This document shows positions 1-9,445 of a stretch of DNA of 64,000 bases, one piece after another. A program made the translations under genes and the position numbers. Below the pieces are notes generated by a model. It did not search any database. It was not told the DNA's origin and saw nothing but the letters and a program-made list of their open reading frames with translations. Numbering within the stretch: position 1 is the first letter of the stretch; each line of letters begins with the position of its first letter. The stretch lies in the NCBI GenBank assembly GCA_964430475.1, contig CAYSEQ010000002.1, positions 7,706 to 71,705 of the forward strand, given 5' to 3'. Source of the DNA: an uncultured Gammaproteobacteria bacterium. Lineage in GTDB: Bacteria > Patescibacteriota > Microgenomatia > UBA8517.

Positions 1-2387
1 TGGTAACTGTTAATGATTATCTAGCAAGAAGAGACGCAGGGTGGAATGGACCCACCTTCCATTTATTAGGACTTTCTGTGGGTTCAATTATTCAGGAGGG
101 TAAATCATTTTTATACGATCCAGAATATAACGACCCAAGCCATGGTGATGAACGTCTTGCCCATCTTAAACCAGTTGATCGGAAGTTGGCTTATGAAGCA
201 GATATTACTTATGGAACAAACAATGAATTTGGTTTTGACTATCTAAGGGATAATATGGTCCAGGATCTTGCGCAAACAGTCCAAAGAGGTCATTATTTTG
301 CCATTGTTGATGAGGTAGACTCTGTCTTGATTGACGAGGCGCGGACTCCTTTGATAATTTCTGCACCTGAGACAGAACCAACCGATAAATATTATAAATT
401 TGCCCAACTTGTGGAAAAATTAAACCCTGATACGGATTTTAAGATTGATGAGAAGGTAAAATCAGCAACTCTTACAGAACACGGTATTGCAAGGGTTGAG
501 AAGATTTTGGGTGTTAATAACTTATATGAAAAAGATTGGGACACTATCCATCACATTGAGAATGCCTTAAGAGCCAAGACTCTTTATCTAAAAGATAGGG
601 ATTATATTGTTAAGGATGATCAGGTAATTATAGTAGATGAGTTTACAGGAAGACTGATGTTTGGAAGGCGTTGGAGTGACGGTTTGCACCAAGCAGTTGA
701 GGCAAAAGAAGGTGTTCCGATCCAACAAGAAAGCAAAACACTAGCAACAATCTCCTTTCAAAATTATTTCAGGATGTATGAGGTTTTGTCGGGTATGACC
801 GGCACTGCAGCCACAGAGGCAGAGGAATTTAAGAAAATTTATAAACTTGATGTTGTGGTAATTCCCACCCATAAACCAATGATTAGAAAAGATTTTCCTG
901 ATGTTATCTATAAAACACAAAGGGCAAAATACGGGGCTGTTGTTAACGAGATAGTAGATTGTTATAGAAAAGGTCAACCTGTTTTGGTGGGTACAACTTC
1001 GATTGAAAAAAACGAGATTATAAGCGAATATTTGAAACGCAAAAAAATTCCCCATAATGTGCTCAATGCCAAAAACCATGAGAAGGAGGCAATGATTATA
1101 GCCGATGCTGGCAAACCAAAGGCTGTTACTGTTGCTACGAATATGGCTGGAAGAGGAGTGGATATTGTTTTGGGTGGGGCCTTACCCGATAGAAATCCAG
1201 AAGTTTCTCAAAAAGAGTTTGAGAGTTCAAAAGAGTTTAAAGACTGGTTAAGGCGTCATGAGGAAGTAGTTAAAGCTGGCGGGCTACATGTTATAGGTAC
1301 TGAGCGACATGAATCAAGAAGGATTGATAACCAGTTGCGAGGTCGGGCTGGTAGACAGGGCGATCCTGGCTCCAGTCGTTTTTATTTATCGCTAGAGGAT
1401 GATTTGATGAGGATTTTTGGTGGAGAACAGATAAGTTCTTTGATGGATAGACTTAAAATTCCAGAGGATCAGCCGATAGAGAATAAATTGATAAGCCGTT
1501 CAATAGAACAAGCACAGATTAAAGTTGAAGGCTTTCATTTTGACGCGAGAAAAAGTTTGGTTGAATACGACGATGTTATTAATCAGCAAAGAGAAATTAT
1601 CTATAAGTTAAGGCGTAGGGTTCTTGAATCTGACAATCTTAAAGATGAAGTGGTGGAGAAGCTGAGAAATCAAATCGATAAAATTATCTTGATATCAACG
1701 GATACGAACACGGATAGCGTGGATACAGAAAAGGTTATCGTAAACCTTTTGGATATTGTTCCATTTGATGATTCCTCAGTTAAAAAAATTAAAATTGAGT
1801 TGGGCAAGGTGAACAATAGAGAGGAAATAAAAAATCTTTTGAATAGAATTATTGAGGATGTTTATTTAGCAAGGGAGAAAGATTTGGGGGATAAGTTAAT
1901 GCGACAGGTTGAAAAGTTTGCCTATCTTTCTTCAATAGACAGACATTGGATTGATCATATAGACCATTTAGATGGACTGCGGGAGGGGGTAAGACTCAGA
2001 GCTTATGGACAACGCGATCCTTTGGTTGAATTTAAAAATGAAGCATACGAACTTTTTGAGGGATTAATTGAGAGAATTGACTCCGAACTTGCAAGAAGAA
2101 TATTTAGGATTGGAATTGTGGGACAACCACGCCCCGAAATTCCATTAGAATCCGCAGTAACTAATGTTGATACTTCTGATGACACAGGTCTTGTGGATGC
2201 GGTGATTCCTTCATTAAGCCCTAAGGAAGAGGAAAAAGCTTTTGCCCGTAGTGCGAGGTTAAATCAACCAGAGCCTATTGCGAATAGCCTGAATCCCCGC
2301 ACAACTAGAAAAATTGGAAGAAACGATCCTTGTTGGTGTGGCTCAGGGAAGAAGTGGAAGAAATGTCATTATCCCCAATTGGGATGA
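1..2387 (+). CDS. secA: Preprotein translocase subunit SecA, 3' portion; the 5' end lies upstream of the window
   Basis: Open frame from base 1. SecA motor and helical scaffold motifs (…DEVDSVLIDEARTPLIIS…, …GTERHESRRIDNQLRGRAGRQGDPG…). C-terminal zinc finger CWCGSGKKWKKCH. Ends at TGA. Confidence 0.95.
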   Translation, partial: VTVNDYLARRDAGWNGPTFHLLGLSVGSIIQEGKSFLYDPEYNDPSHGDERLAHLKPVDRKLAYEADITYGTNNEFGFDYLRDNMVQDLAQTVQRGHYFAIVDEVDSVLIDEARTPLIISAPETEPTDKYYKFAQLVEKLNPDTDFKIDEKVKSATLTEHGIARVEKILGVNNLYEKDWDTIHHIENALRAKTLYLKDRDYIVKDDQVIIVDEFTGRLMFGRRWSDGLHQAVEAKEGVPIQQESKTLATISFQNYFRMYEVLSGMTGTAATEAEEFKKIYKLDVVVIPTHKPMIRKDFPDVIYKTQRAKYGAVVNEIVDCYRKGQPVLVGTTSIEKNEIISEYLKRKKIPHNVLNAKNHEKEAMIIADAGKPKAVTVATNMAGRGVDIVLGGALPDRNPEVSQKEFESSKEFKDWLRRHEEVVKAGGLHVIGTERHESRRIDNQLRGRAGRQGDPGSSRFYLSLEDDLMRIFGGEQISSLMDRLKIPEDQPIENKLISRSIEQAQIKVEGFHFDARKSLVEYDDVINQQREIIYKLRRRVLESDNLKDEVVEKLRNQIDKIILISTDTNTDSVDTEKVIVNLLDIVPFDDSSVKKIKIELGKVNNREEIKNLLNRIIEDVYLAREKDLGDKLMRQVEKFAYLSSIDRHWIDHIDHLDGLREGVRLRAYGQRDPLVEFKNEAYELFEGLIERIDSELARRIFRIGIVGQPRPEIPLESAVTNVDTSDDTGLVDAVIPSLSPKEEEKAFARSARLNQPEPIANSLNPRTTRKIGRNDPCWCGSGKKWKKCHYPQLG

Positions 2388-2636
2388 TTTTGCCTAAAAA
2401 CCCGGTGTTTGAACCTAGTCAAGTGTCTCCTACACCTCTAAGGTGTATAAAAAGGTGTATAAATAGGTATGTGAGGTATGTGTAATAGGTATGTAATAAT
2501 ATGTAGAGGAGGCCAAGTGTTTGGATCAAAGGAATTAAATTTTTCTCTGCATAAGTTCAGATACATATTAGACTCATTCAAGGAAAAAGAATGAGTTATC
2601 TATGTAAGAAGGACAAGCTTTATTTTTAAGGGTGTT

Positions 2637-2819
2637 TTGAGGTATTCTAGATTATGGAAGAGCAAAAAGACGAAAGCCTTCAACAATGAACTTATCGATG
2701 ATCTTCTCTTCTACAGTACACAAAGACCACATAATTCCCTAGGCAATCAGGAACCAATGAGAGCTGTAGTAGAATATTTTAAGAAGTCTAATATGTATTG
2801 GACCAATACATGGGGTTGA
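2637..2819 (+). pseudogene. IS transposase C-terminal fragment (end of a DDE integrase core, …YSTQRPHNSLG…)
   Basis: 60-aa ORF matching only the extreme C-terminus of IS3/IS481-type transposases. No upstream catalytic region. Confidence 0.6.
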
Positions 2820-2925
2820 CTGGAAACTCCAATTCAGCTCCTATCAAAATAGGAGGATATCTAGTTGTAATATTCAATATCCTAAATGAAAACAAAACAA
2901 GAAAAGAGAGGAGGTGACAAAAAGA

Positions 2926-3117
2926 ATGGGTGTTGAGAATCCTTCAATTGAAGTGGGTATTGAGCGAAATTCTAAAGTAAAAGCTGAACTGACTCAGCGC
3001 TCAAAAATTGATTTAGTCGAAGCAAAAGATCCCCTAATAGAAGCCAACGGATTTAACGGAACATGTAGTAATAGTGGCAATGGTTGTACAGGATCTTGTA
3101 ACCACTCATCGAAATAA
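2926..3117 (+). CDS. TOMM/LAP precursor peptide: ~45-aa leader plus Cys/Ser/Thr/Gly-rich core (…NGFNGTCSNSGNGCTGSCNHSSK)
   Basis: Small ORF 65 bp upstream of the YcaO gene. Strong SD (GGAGGTGA) 9 nt before the ATG at 2926; the ORF track starts at an in-frame GTG at 2914. The C-terminal 22 aa are 70% C/S/T/G/N. Confidence 0.7.
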   Translation: MGVENPSIEVGIERNSKVKAELTQRSKIDLVEAKDPLIEANGFNGTCSNSGNGCTGSCNHSSK

Positions 3118-3182
3118 AAAACTCTGCCACTAGTAGTAATAAAAGGCATGCGTAGATAATTCCGTCAGGAGGTGATGTCTTT

Positions 3183-4526
3183 ATGGATAGACTTATTCTC
3201 TCTTGGGAGAAAGAACTTGATAATCACCAACTGTTAAAGAATATAAATAATCTCATAAACGATAAGTATATTGTTAAAAATTTTAGTAAATCTCCGAGAT
3301 ATTATGATGAACCAAAGCTATACCAATATTCAGTACAAATTGCGGATACAAGATATAAGTCAGATGCAGATAGAGCTGCTGGTTATAGCGGGGGCGCCTC
3401 TTTTGATGAGAGCAAGGCAATAATTAAAGCTGTTTGTGAAGCAGTAGAAAGGTATTGTCTTGCAATCTATAAAGAAAAAGATCTCATCAGAGCATCTTAC
3501 AGTAAAATAAAAAACAGAAGTATTCCCCTAAAAAACATTATTTCTTTTTCCGCTACCCAGTTGAAAGCGAAAAGTCTATCCAGTTGTAAATATACTGATA
3601 AAACAAATTTTTTCTGGGCAAATGGTAAATCCATATTTGACAATAAGCCAGTTTTAATTCCAGCACAACTAATTTTCGTTCCATATAATTTCAAAAAAGA
3701 GAAAATAATTCGATTGCCAATAAGTACTGGTGCAGCATCTGGTACTTCTTTTACAGGAGCTTTATTGCGGGGAATCTTAGAAATAATTGAGAGAGATGCC
3801 TTTATGATCCATTACTTATCTAATGTTTGTGGAGAGCTTATTGATTTTTCCGACAATGATCGACTTTTAAGCATTAAAAATTATTTTAAAAAATATAGAT
3901 TGGATTTATATTTAATAAATCTACCTACAGACCTAAAAATTTATACATTTTTAACCTTAATTATCGATAAGACAGGTGTGGGTCCAGCCGTCTCAGCGGG
4001 TTTAAAAGCTGGTCTTGATTCACTTGAAACAGCTATTGGCTCCATAGAAGAAGGATGGCATTCAAGACCTTGGATAAGAGACGAGCTTAACAAAAAGCCT
4101 GATTTAAATAAGATTATTTCTGAGGGAAAAACTTTGCATGATATTAAAAAAAGAGGGCTATTTTGGTCTTCAATAGAAATGATAAAGTATGTCGATCCCT
4201 GGATAAATAATAAACGAGTTATAAGATTTAACAAGTTACGTTCTCTTTCTAAAGGTAAGCTCATAAGTGATCTGCATTATATTTTAAGTCTTCTGAGATC
4301 AAAGGGACATAATGTCTATTATGTTGATATAACGAGACCCGAAGTAGAGAAATACAGATTTAAAGTTTTGAAGGCGGTAATCCCTTCTTTACATCCACTA
4401 TATCTGGATGAACCATACCCATATTTAGGAGGTAATCGTATTTATCAATTACCTGTAGGGCTAGGCTACAAAGAAAATGCGTTGACAGAATCGGAACTTA
4501 ATCGGACGCCCCATTTCTTTTTATGA
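3183..4526 (+). CDS. YcaO-domain cyclodehydratase (TOMM D-protein type)
   Basis: Canonical YcaO ATP-binding motif …SGGASFDESKAIIKAVCEAVERYC…. Pro-rich C-terminal motif (…LHPLYLDEPYPY…). SD AGGAGGTGA upstream. Confidence 0.85.
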   Translation: MDRLILSWEKELDNHQLLKNINNLINDKYIVKNFSKSPRYYDEPKLYQYSVQIADTRYKSDADRAAGYSGGASFDESKAIIKAVCEAVERYCLAIYKEKDLIRASYSKIKNRSIPLKNIISFSATQLKAKSLSSCKYTDKTNFFWANGKSIFDNKPVLIPAQLIFVPYNFKKEKIIRLPISTGAASGTSFTGALLRGILEIIERDAFMIHYLSNVCGELIDFSDNDRLLSIKNYFKKYRLDLYLINLPTDLKIYTFLTLIIDKTGVGPAVSAGLKAGLDSLETAIGSIEEGWHSRPWIRDELNKKPDLNKIISEGKTLHDIKKRGLFWSSIEMIKYVDPWINNKRVIRFNKLRSLSKGKLISDLHYILSLLRSKGHNVYYVDITRPEVEKYRFKVLKAVIPSLHPLYLDEPYPYLGGNRIYQLPVGLGYKENALTESELNRTPHFFL

Positions 4527-5263
4527 AGAATCAGAGTAAGTATTATTTTTACAAATTTCATGAAGCTTCAAGTATAAAAAAAGCTAAAAGGTTGCCCTCC
4601 CGCGATAAATGGCCGGAGTCTTGGAAGAGAATTTATTTTAAGGGATATCCTAGATTTGAAAGAATTTATCTGAATAAATCTGCCTGGTTTAATAAAAATT
4701 ATGATTTGATTAACACAATTCTTGAGCGCAGAAGTGTAAGAGAATCTAACTTACCAATGTTTTCCAAGGATGATTTATCTCTGCTTTTATTAGGCGGTGC
4801 TATTACGAAAACTGACTCTAATGTTTTTTATGACTCTTATAGATCGTATCCTTCTGCTGGTGCAAGATACCCTTGTGAAATTTATATTTTTTTAAATAAG
4901 GTTAAAAATTTGAAGGGCGGTCTATATCACTACCATGTCAGGACTCATTCTCTGGAATACCTCTGGCCTATAAATTCCGAAGAAATAAAGAGATGCTTTC
5001 CTAATCAAAATTTCGTAACAAGAAGTAAGGCAATTGTTATAATTACAGCCATTATGAGCAGAAATATTAGTAAATATTCAGAACGTGGCTATAGATTTGC
5101 TTTGTTGGAAGCTGGGCATATAGGCCAAAATGTTTGCCTTATTGCTACCGCTATGGGTATGAGTGCATGTCCAATAGGGGGGTTTCATGACAAAAATCTA
5201 GCAGATTTGATTGACATCGACTCTAATGAAGAGCTGCCTTTATATTGCGTTTCAATTTTATGA
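4523..5263 (+). CDS. SagB-type FMN-dependent dehydrogenase (nitroreductase superfamily; TOMM B protein)
   Basis: N-terminal RRSVRES and the diagnostic …YPSAGARYPCEIY… motif of SagB-like azoline oxidases. 4-nt overlap with the YcaO gene (translational coupling). Confidence 0.8.
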   Translation: MKNQSKYYFYKFHEASSIKKAKRLPSRDKWPESWKRIYFKGYPRFERIYLNKSAWFNKNYDLINTILERRSVRESNLPMFSKDDLSLLLLGGAITKTDSNVFYDSYRSYPSAGARYPCEIYIFLNKVKNLKGGLYHYHVRTHSLEYLWPINSEEIKRCFPNQNFVTRSKAIVIITAIMSRNISKYSERGYRFALLEAGHIGQNVCLIATAMGMSACPIGGFHDKNLADLIDIDSNEELPLYCVSIL

Positions 5264-5285
5264 TAACCTTATGAGAGAAAGAGAT

Positions 5286-7006
5286 ATGCCTAAACCCATA
5301 GAAAAAAAACGACGCATTATGGGGTTTTTGCAACGAACCTTTATCTTTCAAGAGGGGGGAAGGAGTTACTAAGAGAAGCTACATTCTCTATTTATCCTGG
5401 TAGAAAGGTCGCTTTAATTGGGAGAAATGGTAGTGGCAAGACTACCTTGTTAGAGACGATCAACGCTGTAGCAAGGGGTCAAGAGTTACCTGAAGGGGTA
5501 GATGTACGTGGTTCCCTCACAATTCCAAGAAGGACAAAGACTGGCTATCTTCCACAAAGTGTACAAGTAAGTTTCTCCGGAACTGTAAAAGAGTACTTAG
5601 ATTTTTGCGCGGAAGAGGTATCACAAGTTTTCAACAGATATCATGAACTTGAAGAAAAATTAGCTAAGAGAACAGATAATGAGGTCATAAATGAGTTTGG
5701 GGAAATTTTGGGGAAAATGGCCGATCTTAATGCATGGGATTTACCTAAGAATAGAAGATTGATTTTAGAAGGTCTGGGATTATCTGATGAATATTTAAGC
5801 CGAAATATTAAAGAGATTAGTGGAGGGGAATCTACCAAAGTTGCTCTTGCAGGAATTCTATTATCTTCGCCAAACCTAATACTTCTTGACGAGCCGACAA
5901 ATAATTTGGATCCCAGAAGTTTAATCTTTCTTGAGAATTGGATCAGAAATGATATCTCGTCTTTGCTTCTGGTTTCTCATGATAGAGAGTTTTTGGATAG
6001 AACTATAGATGAGATTATTGAGATAGATGAAGCAACCAGAAAAGTTTTGCTTTTTGGAGGCAACTATTCTTTTTATTTTCAAAAAAAGAAAGAAAATTAT
6101 GAGGCTCAACTAAGACAGTTTGAGGAGCAACAAAGAAAAAGAAGGCAGCTCGAAGCAGAAGCTGATAGATTGAGATCGGAAGCCAGAAGATTGGAATCAA
6201 TTTCTACAAACGCCTTCTACAGAGCAAAAGGTGCGGGTTTGGCGAGGCGAGCAAGAGTTCAATTAGAACGGATAGAAAGAGAGCTTACTCAAATTCCTAA
6301 ACCCGAGCCACCTAAAAAACCCACAATCACTGTATTTGAGACAGAAGTAAGACAAGATTTATTAGTGCAAGCAGAAGATTTATCATTCTCTTATACAAAT
6401 AATAAAAAACTGCTCTCTGAAGTGTCATTTATTGTCCATGGTGGCGAAAGAATAGGTATAATTGGGCCTAATGGTTCGGGGAAAACTACTTTGCTAAAGC
6501 TTCTTTTGGGTGAAATACAGCCCACATCAGGCAACGTAACTTTAGCAAGAAGTGCAGTTGTTGGTTATCTTCCCCAAGCAACGACAATTAGCAACCCAAA
6601 AGAGAACGTTTTAGATTTTATTAGGAAAAGAGCATCTCTTTCAGAAGATGATGCTAAAACGTTACTTGGTAAAGTGCTTTTCACCGATCCATCTCATCTC
6701 CGAGTTGGAGATTTTAGTGCCGGCGAGCTGAGAAGAGTTGAACTCGTAGGACTATTTGCTTCTAAACCAAACATCATTTTCCTTGATGAGCCGACTAATC
6801 ATTTAGATATTTATACGATAGAAATGTTAGAAGATGCATTAGATAATTACAAGGGAGGTTTAATAGCAGTATCTCATGATGAGAGATTCCTTAAAAATAT
6901 ACGTCCAAATAGAATAGTTATATTCGAAGGAGAGGGGAATTTGGTAAGCCGGGTTGTCAAGAAGTCCGACGATGTTTCAAAAATTTTTGAAGAAGTGTTC
7001 AGTTGA
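5286..7006 (+). CDS. ABC-F family ATPase: two ABC domains, no TM, charged inter-domain linker. The reading frame is interrupted near the 5' end at an A8 run
   Basis: Walker A GRNGSGKTT (domain 1) and GPNGSGKTT (domain 2). Signatures LSGGE and FSAGE. Arg/Glu-rich linker RQFEEQQRKRRQLEAEADRLRSEARRLE. The ATG at 5286 (after SD GAGAGAAAGAGAT) reads MPKPIEKK, then the frame switches at AAAAAAAA (5302-5309) into …TTHYGVFATNLYLSRGGKELL…. Confidence 0.75.
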
Positions 7007-7424
7007 TATCAAAATGAACTAATCAACACAAGATAGCCTTTAAAGTTATCTAACAAAAGACAAGGTTAGTATTAAGACATTTCTCTAATATGGATACTTA
7101 TACACTCTATAAGCCTAAGCAATCGATAAAGTCAGCAGTTGGAGCTTCCTGGTAGAAAAATTCAGAAGAAGAGAAACATCGCTGACACTCCTATCAAACC
7201 ATGTCAGCAAGAAGGTAGAAAATTCCACCTTCCTCGGAAATTACTCCTAGAGAAGTAATCTCTCATATCGGTTTACTAAGGGTATAAACCCAATATGGGT
7301 GATATTAATTAATATACTAGCACAAAAGAGGTTGGCATTTTGGGAGTTTAACAACATTGTAAAAGACTCAAAGTAATTCACATATTTAAAATAAAAGAGT
7401 TAAAAACACCACAAGATAATCCAA

Positions 7425-7603
7425 TGGATGCAGGGTTCAAGAGGACCGTTAAAGAAGGATTCGTGGAAGTCAATGAGTATTTTGAAGAACACCTGGTAGA
7501 TGCTGATTTAACCAAAGCCAACAATGAACTTAGAGGATGGCTTGTATTCTACAACTTCACCAGACCCCATCAAGCACTTAACTATCTAACACCAATAAGG
7601 TAA
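7425..7603 (+). pseudogene. IS transposase fragment, C-terminal end of an integrase core (…FYNFTRPHQALNYLTP…)
   Basis: Short ORF with only a terminal rve-domain motif. Confidence 0.6.
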
Positions 7604-7699
7604 TACTAGCCAGAGAGTGTCCGTGATGTCCCCTTCTGGTACATCTACTATCTTTTTATGCAAGAAAAAGATTAAGGATGCTAAGGGTTCTTTACTTGG

Positions 7700-8180
7700 C
7701 CTTATCAATAAGTCCCGTAGGTCTTACAATACAAGAAGAATGTATGTTGCCAACCTGTTTTTGAGTTTATCAAAGGCTTAAGAGAAAAATACCCAAGATT
7801 AGGTAAGGAGAAAATCAAAATTCTTCTTGATCAATACTGTCAAGAAAACAATCTCAAAACTATTTCTGTCTCCAAAATTGGCAGGATTATCAAAAAGAAC
7901 AACTGGTTTTTATACCTTGGAAAAAGAACTAAACAGACTGTTAAACAAAACAAGAAAAGAGTCTTTGGTTGGTTAGGTTGATAACCCAGGAGATTTATTC
8001 CAGATAGATACCCTGATTAGATTTGAGCATAAAGTCAAAAGATACATCCTCACTGCCTGTAATGTTGTTTCTAAGTTTTCTTTCGCCTTTGCCTATAAAT
8101 CTCATAGCTCTAAACAACCCTCTGATTTTAAGGTCTATGCTAGGATGATTTTGGAATTTTACAGGAAGAAATTGGATTAA
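7700..8180 (+). pseudogene. Decayed IS transposase N-terminal HTH region and start of the DDE domain, broken over several frames
   Basis: Fragments YPRLGKEKIKILLDQYCQENNLKTISVSKIGRIIKKN and IPGDLFQIDTLIRFEHKVKRYILTACNVVSKFSFAFAYKS lie in different frames with stops between them. Confidence 0.55.
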
Positions 8181-8352
8181 CTTAAAGTCCGACTTCTGAA
8201 GGGAGGATATTTAGCATAAATTCTTCGGGTTTTTCAGTAAAGATTATCCGTTTTCCTAAAGCCTGTGCATAACCAATCTCGATTAAGGCAGACGCTCCTA
8301 CATAGCCATCTTTATCACAGACAATTAGAGCATCGGACCCCTCTATGGAATC

Positions 8353-9445
8353 CTAAAGATACCTTTCAAGCTCAAGGGATGTTGACCTTTCTTCACCTCC
8401 AAAAACTATGAACTCTTCGCCTGGGTTTTTGGGTTCTGTAAATCTTGGGCTCAATACTTCAACCCCTTTATCGTCCAACTGTTTTCTAATTTTCAAAATA
8501 TAATCTAAGTACTTACGGAAGCTTCCCCTTATTGTTACATGGCGAAACTCTTGTCTTGCAACTCCATCTATGAGGTTTGAGTTAGAGGGAATTATTGTCT
8601 CAATTTTATACTTCTGACAAATTGCTTGAGCTATAGCACTACAAGCCCTTGCTCCATGCATCCATCTGGGGTTATCGGGCATAAGTGCCTCTAATTCGGA
8701 CAGGGTTACTTTCGAAAATATTTCATTATTTCTTTTAGCAAAGTCATCAAAAGAAATAAGACTTGGGTGGTCTTTGTCGTTAAATAATTTATTATCTTGT
8801 GGTTTATATGAAGCAATTCGCATATAAGTTAGTTCGCCGCCAGAGTAGAAAGCTAATTTGACTTTATTTTGCAAAGAGGGGAGTTTTTTCTTTATAAATT
8901 CAACTGTTTTTTCGAGACTAAATTTGGAAACTTCTTCATTTATTTCCTGAAATTCAGTCAAAATTGTTCCGACCCCTATTTCAATGTTTTTCGTCTCAAT
9001 CGCCTCTTTTCCTAACATCACAACAAGTTCAGTTGAACTACCGCCAATATTAATTAGAAGAAGTGGATCTTTGACATTTTCGTATTTTCCGACAAGTGTA
9101 ACTTGGAGATAGAAGCTTTCAAGGTCATGCTCTATGATATTAAAGAAAAGGCCAGTTTTCTGGAAAAATTCATCGATAAATTCACGTCTTGTCTTGGGAG
9201 AAAGTTTGCGATAAAGGGCAATCGCATAAAGCTTAATTAGTGTTTTAGGATATTTGTTTTTGACCTCAGAGGTTAATTCATAAAGCTGTTTTTTGTTTTC
9301 TTCTGAAATTCCCTTGTCAGGGTCAAAATTGTCTTTGAATGGAATAGAGCGGCTTAGCAGAAGTTTGGGAGAATTAGAAGAATTCTATAAATCTTAACGG
9401 TAGATGAGCCTATATCAACAAGGATTTTTTATTGTTTCGTTGCAT
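8353..9445 (-). pseudogene. ppx: Exopolyphosphatase / guanosine pentaphosphate phosphohydrolase (Ppx/GppA family) with two apparent frameshifts in the 5' region
   Basis: Minus-strand translation gives MQRNNKK | ILVDIGSSTVKIYRILLILP | KLLLSRSIPFKD…LLLINIGGSSTELVVMLGKEAIE… (Ppx/GppA ATPase motifs). The frame changes at an AAAAAA run (~9425) and at CCCAAAC (~9365). Confidence 0.6.

Follow-up and report, generated by a model that had tools for sequence, protein, structure and literature searches.

The window analysed here is a stretch of 64,000 nucleotides (contig CAYSEQ010000002.1, positions 7,706 to 71,705 of the forward strand) that carries, on its plus strand, a compact cassette of four genes: a precursor of a linear azole-containing peptide (LAP), a YcaO cyclodehydratase, a SagB-type dehydrogenase and an ABC-F protein, that is, a soluble ATPase of the ATP-binding cassette (ABC) superfamily. 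The precursor gene (2926-3117, plus strand, 63 aa) follows a GGAGG ribosome-binding site. The gene call is repeated in L087, an independently assembled contig of 5.3 kb (SRR11582147) that matches positions 2558-7829 of the window and carries the intact allele of the ABC-F (P0121, 578 aa). The SagD-type YcaO cyclodehydratase (3183-4526, plus strand, 447 aa) is recognized by the Pfam YcaO domain (E = 1e-45) and by TIGR03604 (240.9 bits, cut-off 219). The SagB-type FMN dehydrogenase (4523-5263, plus strand, 246 aa) is recognized by the Pfam Nitroreductase domain and by TIGR03605 (136.8 bits, cut-off 78), and its first 4 nt overlap the end of the YcaO gene. These three genes are intact in the window. 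The fourth gene, encoding the ABC-F ATPase (5286-7006, plus strand), is broken by a -1 frame change in a run of adenines. A first-pass annotation of the window had placed it co-directionally behind the dehydrogenase gene, and this is what we find, with a gap of 22 nt measured between the SagB stop codon (5261-5263) and the ATG at 5286.

The C-terminal core of the window precursor ends with ...GFNGTCSNSGNGCTGSCNHSSK. The core CSNSGNGCTGSCNHSSK, of about 17 residues, is found in the window and in L088, and the pattern CSNSGNGCTGSCN[HR][SC]SK is identical or near-identical in L088 and L131 (core CSNSGNGCTGSCNRCSK in the latter), with variants in L001 (CANSGDRCTGSCNHSS) and L002 (CSNSGNPCGGSCNRCSK). 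A precursor adjacent to YcaO and SagB, with a Cys/Ser/Thr-rich core kept across cassettes, is a feature of thiazole/oxazole-modified microcin (TOMM) or LAP clusters. The precursor of L002 (L002:7658-7897) has an eight-fold GGGS repeat that separates the leader from the conserved core. Neither an E1-like (C protein) nor an Ocin-ThiF-like YcaO partner was found in the window cassette, L001, L002, L003 or L131, where only YcaO and nitroreductase domains are present, and the YcaO protein itself bears no fused partner domain. The same five modules contain no exporter and no leader peptidase. The YcaO/SagB cassette may represent a minimal azole-forming system.

The ABC-F had been described in the first-pass annotation as a protein of two ABC domains joined by an Arg/Glu-rich linker, without transmembrane region, and this description is borne out by the Pfam domains, the motifs, the composition of the linker and the hydropathy. 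Pfam detects ABC_tran twice together with the ABC_tran_Xtn linker (PF12848). Each nucleotide-binding domain (NBD) of the intact allele has the full set of motifs (Walker A, Q-loop, signature, Walker B and H-loop). The Walker A of NBD1 (GRNGSGKT, 5420-5443, plus strand) lies 5' of the annotated TTG start at 5447, and that of NBD2 (GPNGSGKT, 6464-6487, plus strand) was located by motif reading. The helical hairpin linker between the two NBDs (6065-6304, plus strand; residues 266-345 of P0121) was delimited from PF12848 and the predicted helices, and is the equivalent of the P-site tRNA interaction motif (PtIM) or antibiotic resistance domain (ARD) of other ABC-Fs. Its 80 residues comprise 14 Arg, 6 Lys, 11 Glu and 1 Asp, and the motif at its tip is ESISTNAFYRAKGAGLARRA. 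The highest Kyte-Doolittle hydropathy over 19 residues is only 1.43, so that no transmembrane helix is expected. The NBD2 signature reads FSAGEL (6713-6730; residues 482-487 of P0121) instead of LSGGE; across the family it is FSxGE, where a hydrophobic residue or Ser replaces the second Gly of LSGGE, and the ABC-F of another cassette, L090, has LSLGER.

An AlphaFold2 (AF2) model built from 28 relatives (pLDDT 89, pTM 0.83) predicts the two helices of the hairpin linker at residues 258-302 and 307-333 (570-aa numbering) and an arm-like helical insertion in NBD1 at about residues 98-160. The best Foldseek matches of this model are the ribosome-bound PoxtA, EttA, Uup, VmlR2 and YbiT (E-values from 1e-42 to 1e-37), in agreement with the ABC-F architecture proposed earlier. 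The protein thus shares its fold and its E-site-binding architecture with the resistance proteins VmlR/VmlR2, Vga, Lsa, Msr, Sal, PoxtA and OptrA, and the second half of its linker aligns with the ARD of VmlR2. It differs from them by keeping the arm helices of NBD1: alignments to the PDB sequences of Vga, Lsa, Msr, Sal and VmlR start only downstream of the arm region, which we read as the probable lack of this arm in these five proteins, and those to EttA, YheS and Uup start from the N-terminus. With the housekeeping proteins EttA, Uup, YheS and YbiT it has in common the arm-containing NBD1 and a similar overall length, and the best PDB sequence matches are YheS and EttA; it differs from them in that its gene is tied to a biosynthetic gene cluster. 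In alignments of PDB sequences the tip of the linker is 11 residues longer than in EttA/YheS and 13 shorter than in VmlR2. The distance between the two Walker-B Glu residues is 299 residues, against 282-284 in a Uup-like outgroup.

The interval 5286-7006, given earlier as the gene, does encode this two-NBD ABC protein, but not as an intact open reading frame (ORF). It measures 1721 nt, which is not divisible by 3, and the ATG at 5286 opens an ORF of only 28 codons ending with a stop at 5370-5372. The body of the ABC-F is read in the frame of 5285/5294, where no ATG, GTG or TTG occurs before the TTG at 5447. The deposited protein P0001 (519 aa) starts at this TTG without the NBD1 Walker A; an exact-sequence look-up of P0001 gave no record. 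Since the N-termini of the homologues (…HYYGVFANNL…) match the second frame from about 5294, a -1 shift is needed inside a homopolymer of eight adenines (A8, 5302-5309, plus strand), the site of a 1-nt deletion where L087 has nine (A9). It is because this run is A8 here that the ATG at 5286 and the gene body lie in different frames; if the run were A9, 573 aa would be read from this ATG. The call of P0121 in L087 starts at an ATG equivalent to 5271. The run is the sole internal difference between the window and L087, which otherwise show four mismatches at the L087 contig end, and apart from it the window ABC-F is 100% identical to P0121. Programmed frameshifting or slippage at the A-run was considered and rejected, since no run of Lys is seen in the N-termini of the homologues and L087 shows an intact allele with A9.

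It follows that the copy of the window either results from mis-assembly or is inactive in this strain. That it would be a true pseudogene, in a cassette being lost, is the alternative that survives best, although we regard it as rather unlikely. In its favor, the frameshift as sequenced separates the NBD1 Walker A from any standard start codon, so that any product with such a start would be deprived of it; a neighboring Ppx/GppA-like gene has an in-frame stop, and relics of insertion sequences (IS) lie on both sides of the cassette. Against it stand the identity of the rest of the gene to P0121 and the intact precursor, YcaO and SagB genes, and a one-base difference in a homopolymer is also a typical artefact of assembly or consensus calling. 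Decay would in any case bear on the window copy alone and is compatible with the function proposed below for the family.

Profile hidden Markov models (HMM) allowed the protein to be placed only in part among the housekeeping and the antibiotic resistance (ARE) clades of ABC-Fs. It passes a single NCBI model, the generic NF000355 "ribosomal protection-like ABC-F" (406 bits, cut-off 380), and remains far under the cut-offs of the EttA models (287 bits for a cut-off of 807, and 284 for 599) and of the Uup model (282 bits, cut-off 900); it does not reach any of the named ARE models either. On these scores, the protein represents an ABC-F subfamily without a name, neither a named ARE nor a named housekeeping type. 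Its closest ABC-F relatives are 43-62% identical and have 565-594 aa. In a contig scan with the ABC-F alignment, with generic ABC motifs as patterns, the ABC-Fs among the matches listed were 27-34% identical.

All seven genomic contexts that were read contain small ORF(s), YcaO, nitroreductase/SagB and the ABC-F on one strand. These contexts are the window with L087 (P0121), L001 (P0003), L002 (P0007), L003 (P0012), L131 (P0024), L132-L135 (P0021) and L100, which is partial as its contig ends inside the ABC-F gene. SagB and the ABC-F are at most 22 nt apart and, at the other extreme, overlap by 4 nt, an operon-like spacing. The flanks differ among most loci: secA in the window, hypothetical genes in L001, and a polyprenyl synthase, a KsgA-like gene and tyrS in L002. 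Only L003 and L132-L135 have flanks in common (NUDIX, adenine glycosylase and YdjM). The ABC-F accompanies the cassette in all seven, with IS relics on its flanks in the window, a distribution of the patchy, mobile or cluster-linked kind expected of an ARE protein. In the best explanation, precursor, YcaO, SagB and ABC-F constitute a compact mobile operon, whose fourth gene, the ABC-F, is dedicated to it.

Neighbor-joining (NJ) analysis with 200 bootstrap replicates unites twelve cassette-type ABC-Fs in one clade (80%), next to a sister clade supported at 96%. Cassette-linked relatives score 383-397 bits with NF000355, and members of the sister clade 372-379 bits, just under the cut-off. No YcaO or SagB was found near the four sister-clade members examined (P0009, P0011, P0028 and P0022), within the sequence that was read. 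Two of these four, P0009 and P0011, are encoded between rplU (L21) and rpmA (L27), in an ftsA-ftsZ-ileS-ftsW … parB block; P0028 adjoins an S1 gene, with no SagB match in the 540 nt upstream that could be read, and P0022 has a mixed neighborhood. The rplU-rpmA position (L130:8001-9740 and L136:6001-7812, Microgenomates group) is an unusual, translation-linked location for an ABC-F. With an IleS 73% identical, the organism of the L21/L27-linked sister gene is likewise a member of the Microgenomates group, and a more distant member, P0031, in a context that does not resemble that of the Candidate Phyla Radiation (CPR), is also without cassette. These observations fit a cassette copy derived from an ABC-F of the lineage, some members of which reside in ribosomal-protein operons, and then fixed in the peptide cassette. 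The proposal of the first-pass annotation, that the ABC-F is a candidate for self-immunity, thus finds support and is not refuted by the test attached to it: we saw neither a grouping with the housekeeping EttA/Uup nor conservation at this locus in relatives deprived of the TOMM genes, given that the seven contexts hold the cassette in mostly differing flanks and that the sister clade lies elsewhere.

Evidence beyond the reach of that annotation comes from sibling cassettes of the CPR. Scanning metagenome contigs with a YcaO alignment yielded 42 related loci, in which four types of cassette were distinguished. Type i (L089, L091-L093) is composed of YcaO, SagB and an M16 peptidase, and type ii is the ABC-F cassette as in the window. 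Type iii (L090) has the order precursor, YcaO, ABC-F and SagB. Its ABC-F (L090:1680-3218, 513 aa) is only 32% identical to that of the window and groups outside its family; it lacks the arm insertion, its linker is longer, its two Walker-B Glu residues are 310 residues apart, and it reaches 451 bits with NF000355. The missing arm and this distance bring it closer to the architecture of the resistance ABC-Fs than the window protein, and we read it as a likely independent recruitment into a LAP cassette. In type iv, a methyltransferase gene directly precedes the precursor (L094:6765-7649, also in L095 and L097, and L096:226-1074) and there is no ABC-F. These methyltransferases pass the Erm model NF000499 (239 and 226 bits, cut-off 212) with scores higher than those for KsgA, and their best PDB matches are ErmC' and ErmAM. 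An RrnaAD gene near the L002 cassette was rejected as further evidence of Erm: its KsgA score exceeds its Erm score, both are under the cut-off, and it is probably a housekeeping gene. A KsgA-like gene of L002, with the scores of the two models in this reverse order, provides an internal control for the Erm assignment.

The YcaO tree unites L090, L094 and L096 at 100% bootstrap and, within this clade, pairs L090 with L094 at 97%. Since L090 is nested among L094 and L096, closely related cassettes carry either an ABC-F or an Erm-type enzyme. ABC-F and Erm proteins represent two classic and mechanistically distinct defences of the tunnel and peptidyl-transferase-centre (PTC) region of the 50S subunit, and few predictors of an antibiotic's target are as reliable as a resistance gene lodged in the gene cluster. 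This exchange among sibling cassettes is circumstantial evidence, yet nothing else speaks as strongly for a product that targets the ribosome.

From the placement of the ABC-F in the cassette and the rRNA methylase genes of the sibling cassettes, a ribosome-targeting peptide and shielding of the producer by the ABC-F are suggested. We therefore propose, with a probability of about 0.6 and from sequence comparisons, that the ABC-F provides self-immunity through ribosome protection, a reading to which the ABC-F of L090 and the Erm-like genes add further support. The operon would yield a short linear peptide that contains azoles and has CSNSGNGCTGSCNHSSK as its conserved core, in which YcaO and SagB would convert Cys, Ser and Thr residues into azoles. 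The modified peptide is predicted to bind the large subunit in the PTC/exit-tunnel region. The ATP form of the ABC-F would then enter the E site of the stalled ribosomes of the producer, its helical hairpin would reach toward the P-site tRNA and the PTC and dislodge or exclude the peptide, and ATP hydrolysis would finally free the ABC-F. Such a scheme would correspond to target protection, as shown for ARE ABC-F proteins.

The nearest known systems are the producer ARE ABC-Fs (OleB, CarA, SrmB, TlrC, VarM and LmrC), which are likewise soluble two-NBD proteins encoded inside the cluster of a compound presumed to target the 50S subunit, with target protection, and possibly signalling, as the expected role. 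Those known come from actinobacteria, in clusters for polyketides, lincosamides or streptogramins, whereas the present gene lies in a four-gene cassette for a peptide ribosomally made and post-translationally modified (RiPP) of a CPR bacterium. ARE ABC-Fs are known to arise repeatedly from other ABC-Fs and to occur in antibiotic producers (PMC6723617), in which immunity by ABC-F has been described for small-molecule antibiotics (PMC6723617, PMC8546547). On the side of the peptide, the LAPs klebsazolicin and phazolicin, which act in the exit tunnel, likewise have a small precursor rich in Cys and Ser, a YcaO and a dehydrogenase of the SagB type, as well as the ribosomal target proposed here. 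A resemblance of the core to that of klebsazolicin (CSNS...CTG) is possible and carries no weight in the argument. The klp and phz clusters encode a separate E1-like C protein (PMC7136475) and their immunity relies on the pump KlpE or PhzE (PMC6783444), whereas the window cassette has neither E1-like protein nor exporter and contains an ABC-F instead. The lack of an exporter or of any other immunity gene in the module, unlike these pump-reliant clusters, favors the immunity role.

LAP clusters with YcaO and nitroreductase have been reported from Microgenomates and Parcubacteria of the CPR and compared with phazolicin by Sharrar et al. (2020, mBio, PMC7298704). The third gene of the cluster described there is a peptidase, which matches the M16 type of L089 and L091-L093, and the passages on this cluster mention no ABC-F or Erm gene, in a text in which no search aimed at these terms was made. 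Our literature search for an ABC-F together with YcaO, klebsazolicin, RiPP or Patescibacteria returned no report linking them, and a review of translation-targeting RiPPs does not mention ABC-F.

Several observations weigh against self-immunity through ribosome protection. Besides the frameshift of the gene in the window, none of the named ARE models (Msr, Vga, Lsa, Sal, OptrA, CplR and the producer type) is reached, with 149-301 bits for cut-offs of 680-1450; the producer-type model NF000171 gives 301 bits for a cut-off of 800. A cassette-specific extension of the linker (ARD) was looked for relative to the sister clade and was not found: the length of the linker and its tip motif are equal in the cassette-linked and sister clades, so that the linker does not mark the cassette copies as specialized. 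The Walker-B Glu-to-Glu distance is likewise common to both clades, and the linker is of intermediate length, between those of EttA (11 residues shorter) and VmlR2 (13 longer). The placement of P0024 and P0023 in the core clade is unclear in the NJ tree, where the cassette-bearing P0024 branches beside the clade. No second ABC-F, which would be the housekeeping paralogue, is seen within the 64 kb of the window. Finally, many related LAP cassettes of the CPR have an M16 peptidase and no ribosome-directed gene.

Among the remaining alternatives, the ABC-F could be a sensor or regulator of peptide-stalled ribosomes that switches on the cassette, as LmrC does for lincomycin, and not, or not only, a resistance factor. 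ABC-Fs of biosynthetic clusters can act as signal transducers (PMC8546547, PMC12421871), and the operon of type ii loci invariably ends with the ABC-F. We nevertheless judge this role improbable: neither a leader ORF nor an attenuator was found upstream, no terminator-like site occurs on the plus strand between 2900 and 7006, and the Erm genes of sibling cassettes favor protection over sensing. It would moreover still need a ribosome-targeting product and so largely overlaps with the explanation by self-immunity.

Slightly less credible still is a specialized elongation factor, devoted to the Gly/Ser/Cys/Asn-rich precursor or to other proteins of the cassette, with a product whose target is not the ribosome. 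Housekeeping ABC-Fs rescue ribosomes on difficult motifs, according to two reports (PMC11990639; bioRxiv 10.1101/2023.06.15.543498), the L002 precursor contains its (GGGS)n tract, and the nearest relatives without cassette reside in ribosomal-protein operons. However, most precursors are short and without repeats, the M16-type cassettes need no ABC-F for similar Cys/Gly-rich precursors, and the Erm-like genes of the sibling cassettes would be left unexplained. The least probable explanation, an ordinary housekeeping gene of the lineage hitch-hiking beside the TOMM genes, can draw on the linker features common to the whole family, on sister-clade NF000355 scores that are only slightly lower and on the single ABC-F of the window, but hardly accounts for the adjacency in seven contexts with mostly different neighbors and overlapping or near-abutting frames, for the different and conserved housekeeping position of the sister clade, or for the unrelated ABC-F recruited independently into L090.

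Concerning the surroundings of the cassette, secA occupies positions 78-2387, its N-terminus being cut by the edge of the window. SecA is 75-80% identical to proteins of Candidatus Woesebacteria; the organism is assigned to this lineage and thereby to the Microgenomates, within the CPR/Patescibacteria. Short imperfect repeats (…ggtgtataaaaaggtgtataaataggtatgtgaggtatgtgtaataggtatgtaataatatgt…) follow one another just 3' of secA (2440-2500). A relic 5' of the cassette (2637-2819, plus strand; weak Pfam rve_3 match, E = 0.0095) corresponds to the C-terminus of an rve_3-type DDE integrase, and a second rve_3 relic is located 3' of it (7424-7603, plus strand; PF13683 on the same ORF in L087). Both relics have the same orientation and share a 35-nt direct repeat (74% identical), with the four-gene cassette between them; these paired fragments may be the remains of an IS-mediated insertion. 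The Ppx/GppA-like gene mentioned above (8185-9363, minus strand) is interrupted by a single in-frame stop at 8353-8355, which may point to some decay in the region. Its identity to the gene directly 3' of the L090 cassette (L090:4183-5433) is 65%, while the cassettes themselves are only 32-40% identical. A scan of 2300-7600 for promoters and terminators gave counts not above those of shuffled sequence, and rplU and rpmA were not found within the window. The remainder of the window resembles an ordinary chromosome, with a Clp ATPase, glycosyl transferases and hydrolases, and FtsEX.

A wider proposal, which we hold tentatively and at a little under even odds, is that the azole peptides of the CPR form a family of inhibitors of the 50S tunnel or PTC, made by mobile cassettes with interchangeable ribosome-directed immunity genes: an ABC-F of type A (window), an ABC-F of type B (L090) or an Erm-type methylase (L094 and L096). 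If this is true, the clade of the window would be the first ABC-F devoted to target protection against a peptide made by ribosomes, and the range of target protection by ABC-Fs would widen beyond small-molecule antibiotics to RiPPs. A new ARE-like subfamily would then have emerged from CPR ABC-Fs with relatives in ribosomal-protein operons. The azole-peptide clusters of the CPR are widespread and uncharacterized, and the three ribosome-directed genes of sibling cassettes (two unrelated ABC-Fs and an Erm-like methylase) make their function directly testable. With four genes, a core of about 17 residues, and neither E1-like partner nor exporter, the cassette is small enough for synthesis and heterologous expression. 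It would also follow that ultra-small episymbiotic bacteria make translation inhibitors and, with a module that contains no exporter, these episymbionts might use the peptide directly against the ribosomes of their host or of competitors.

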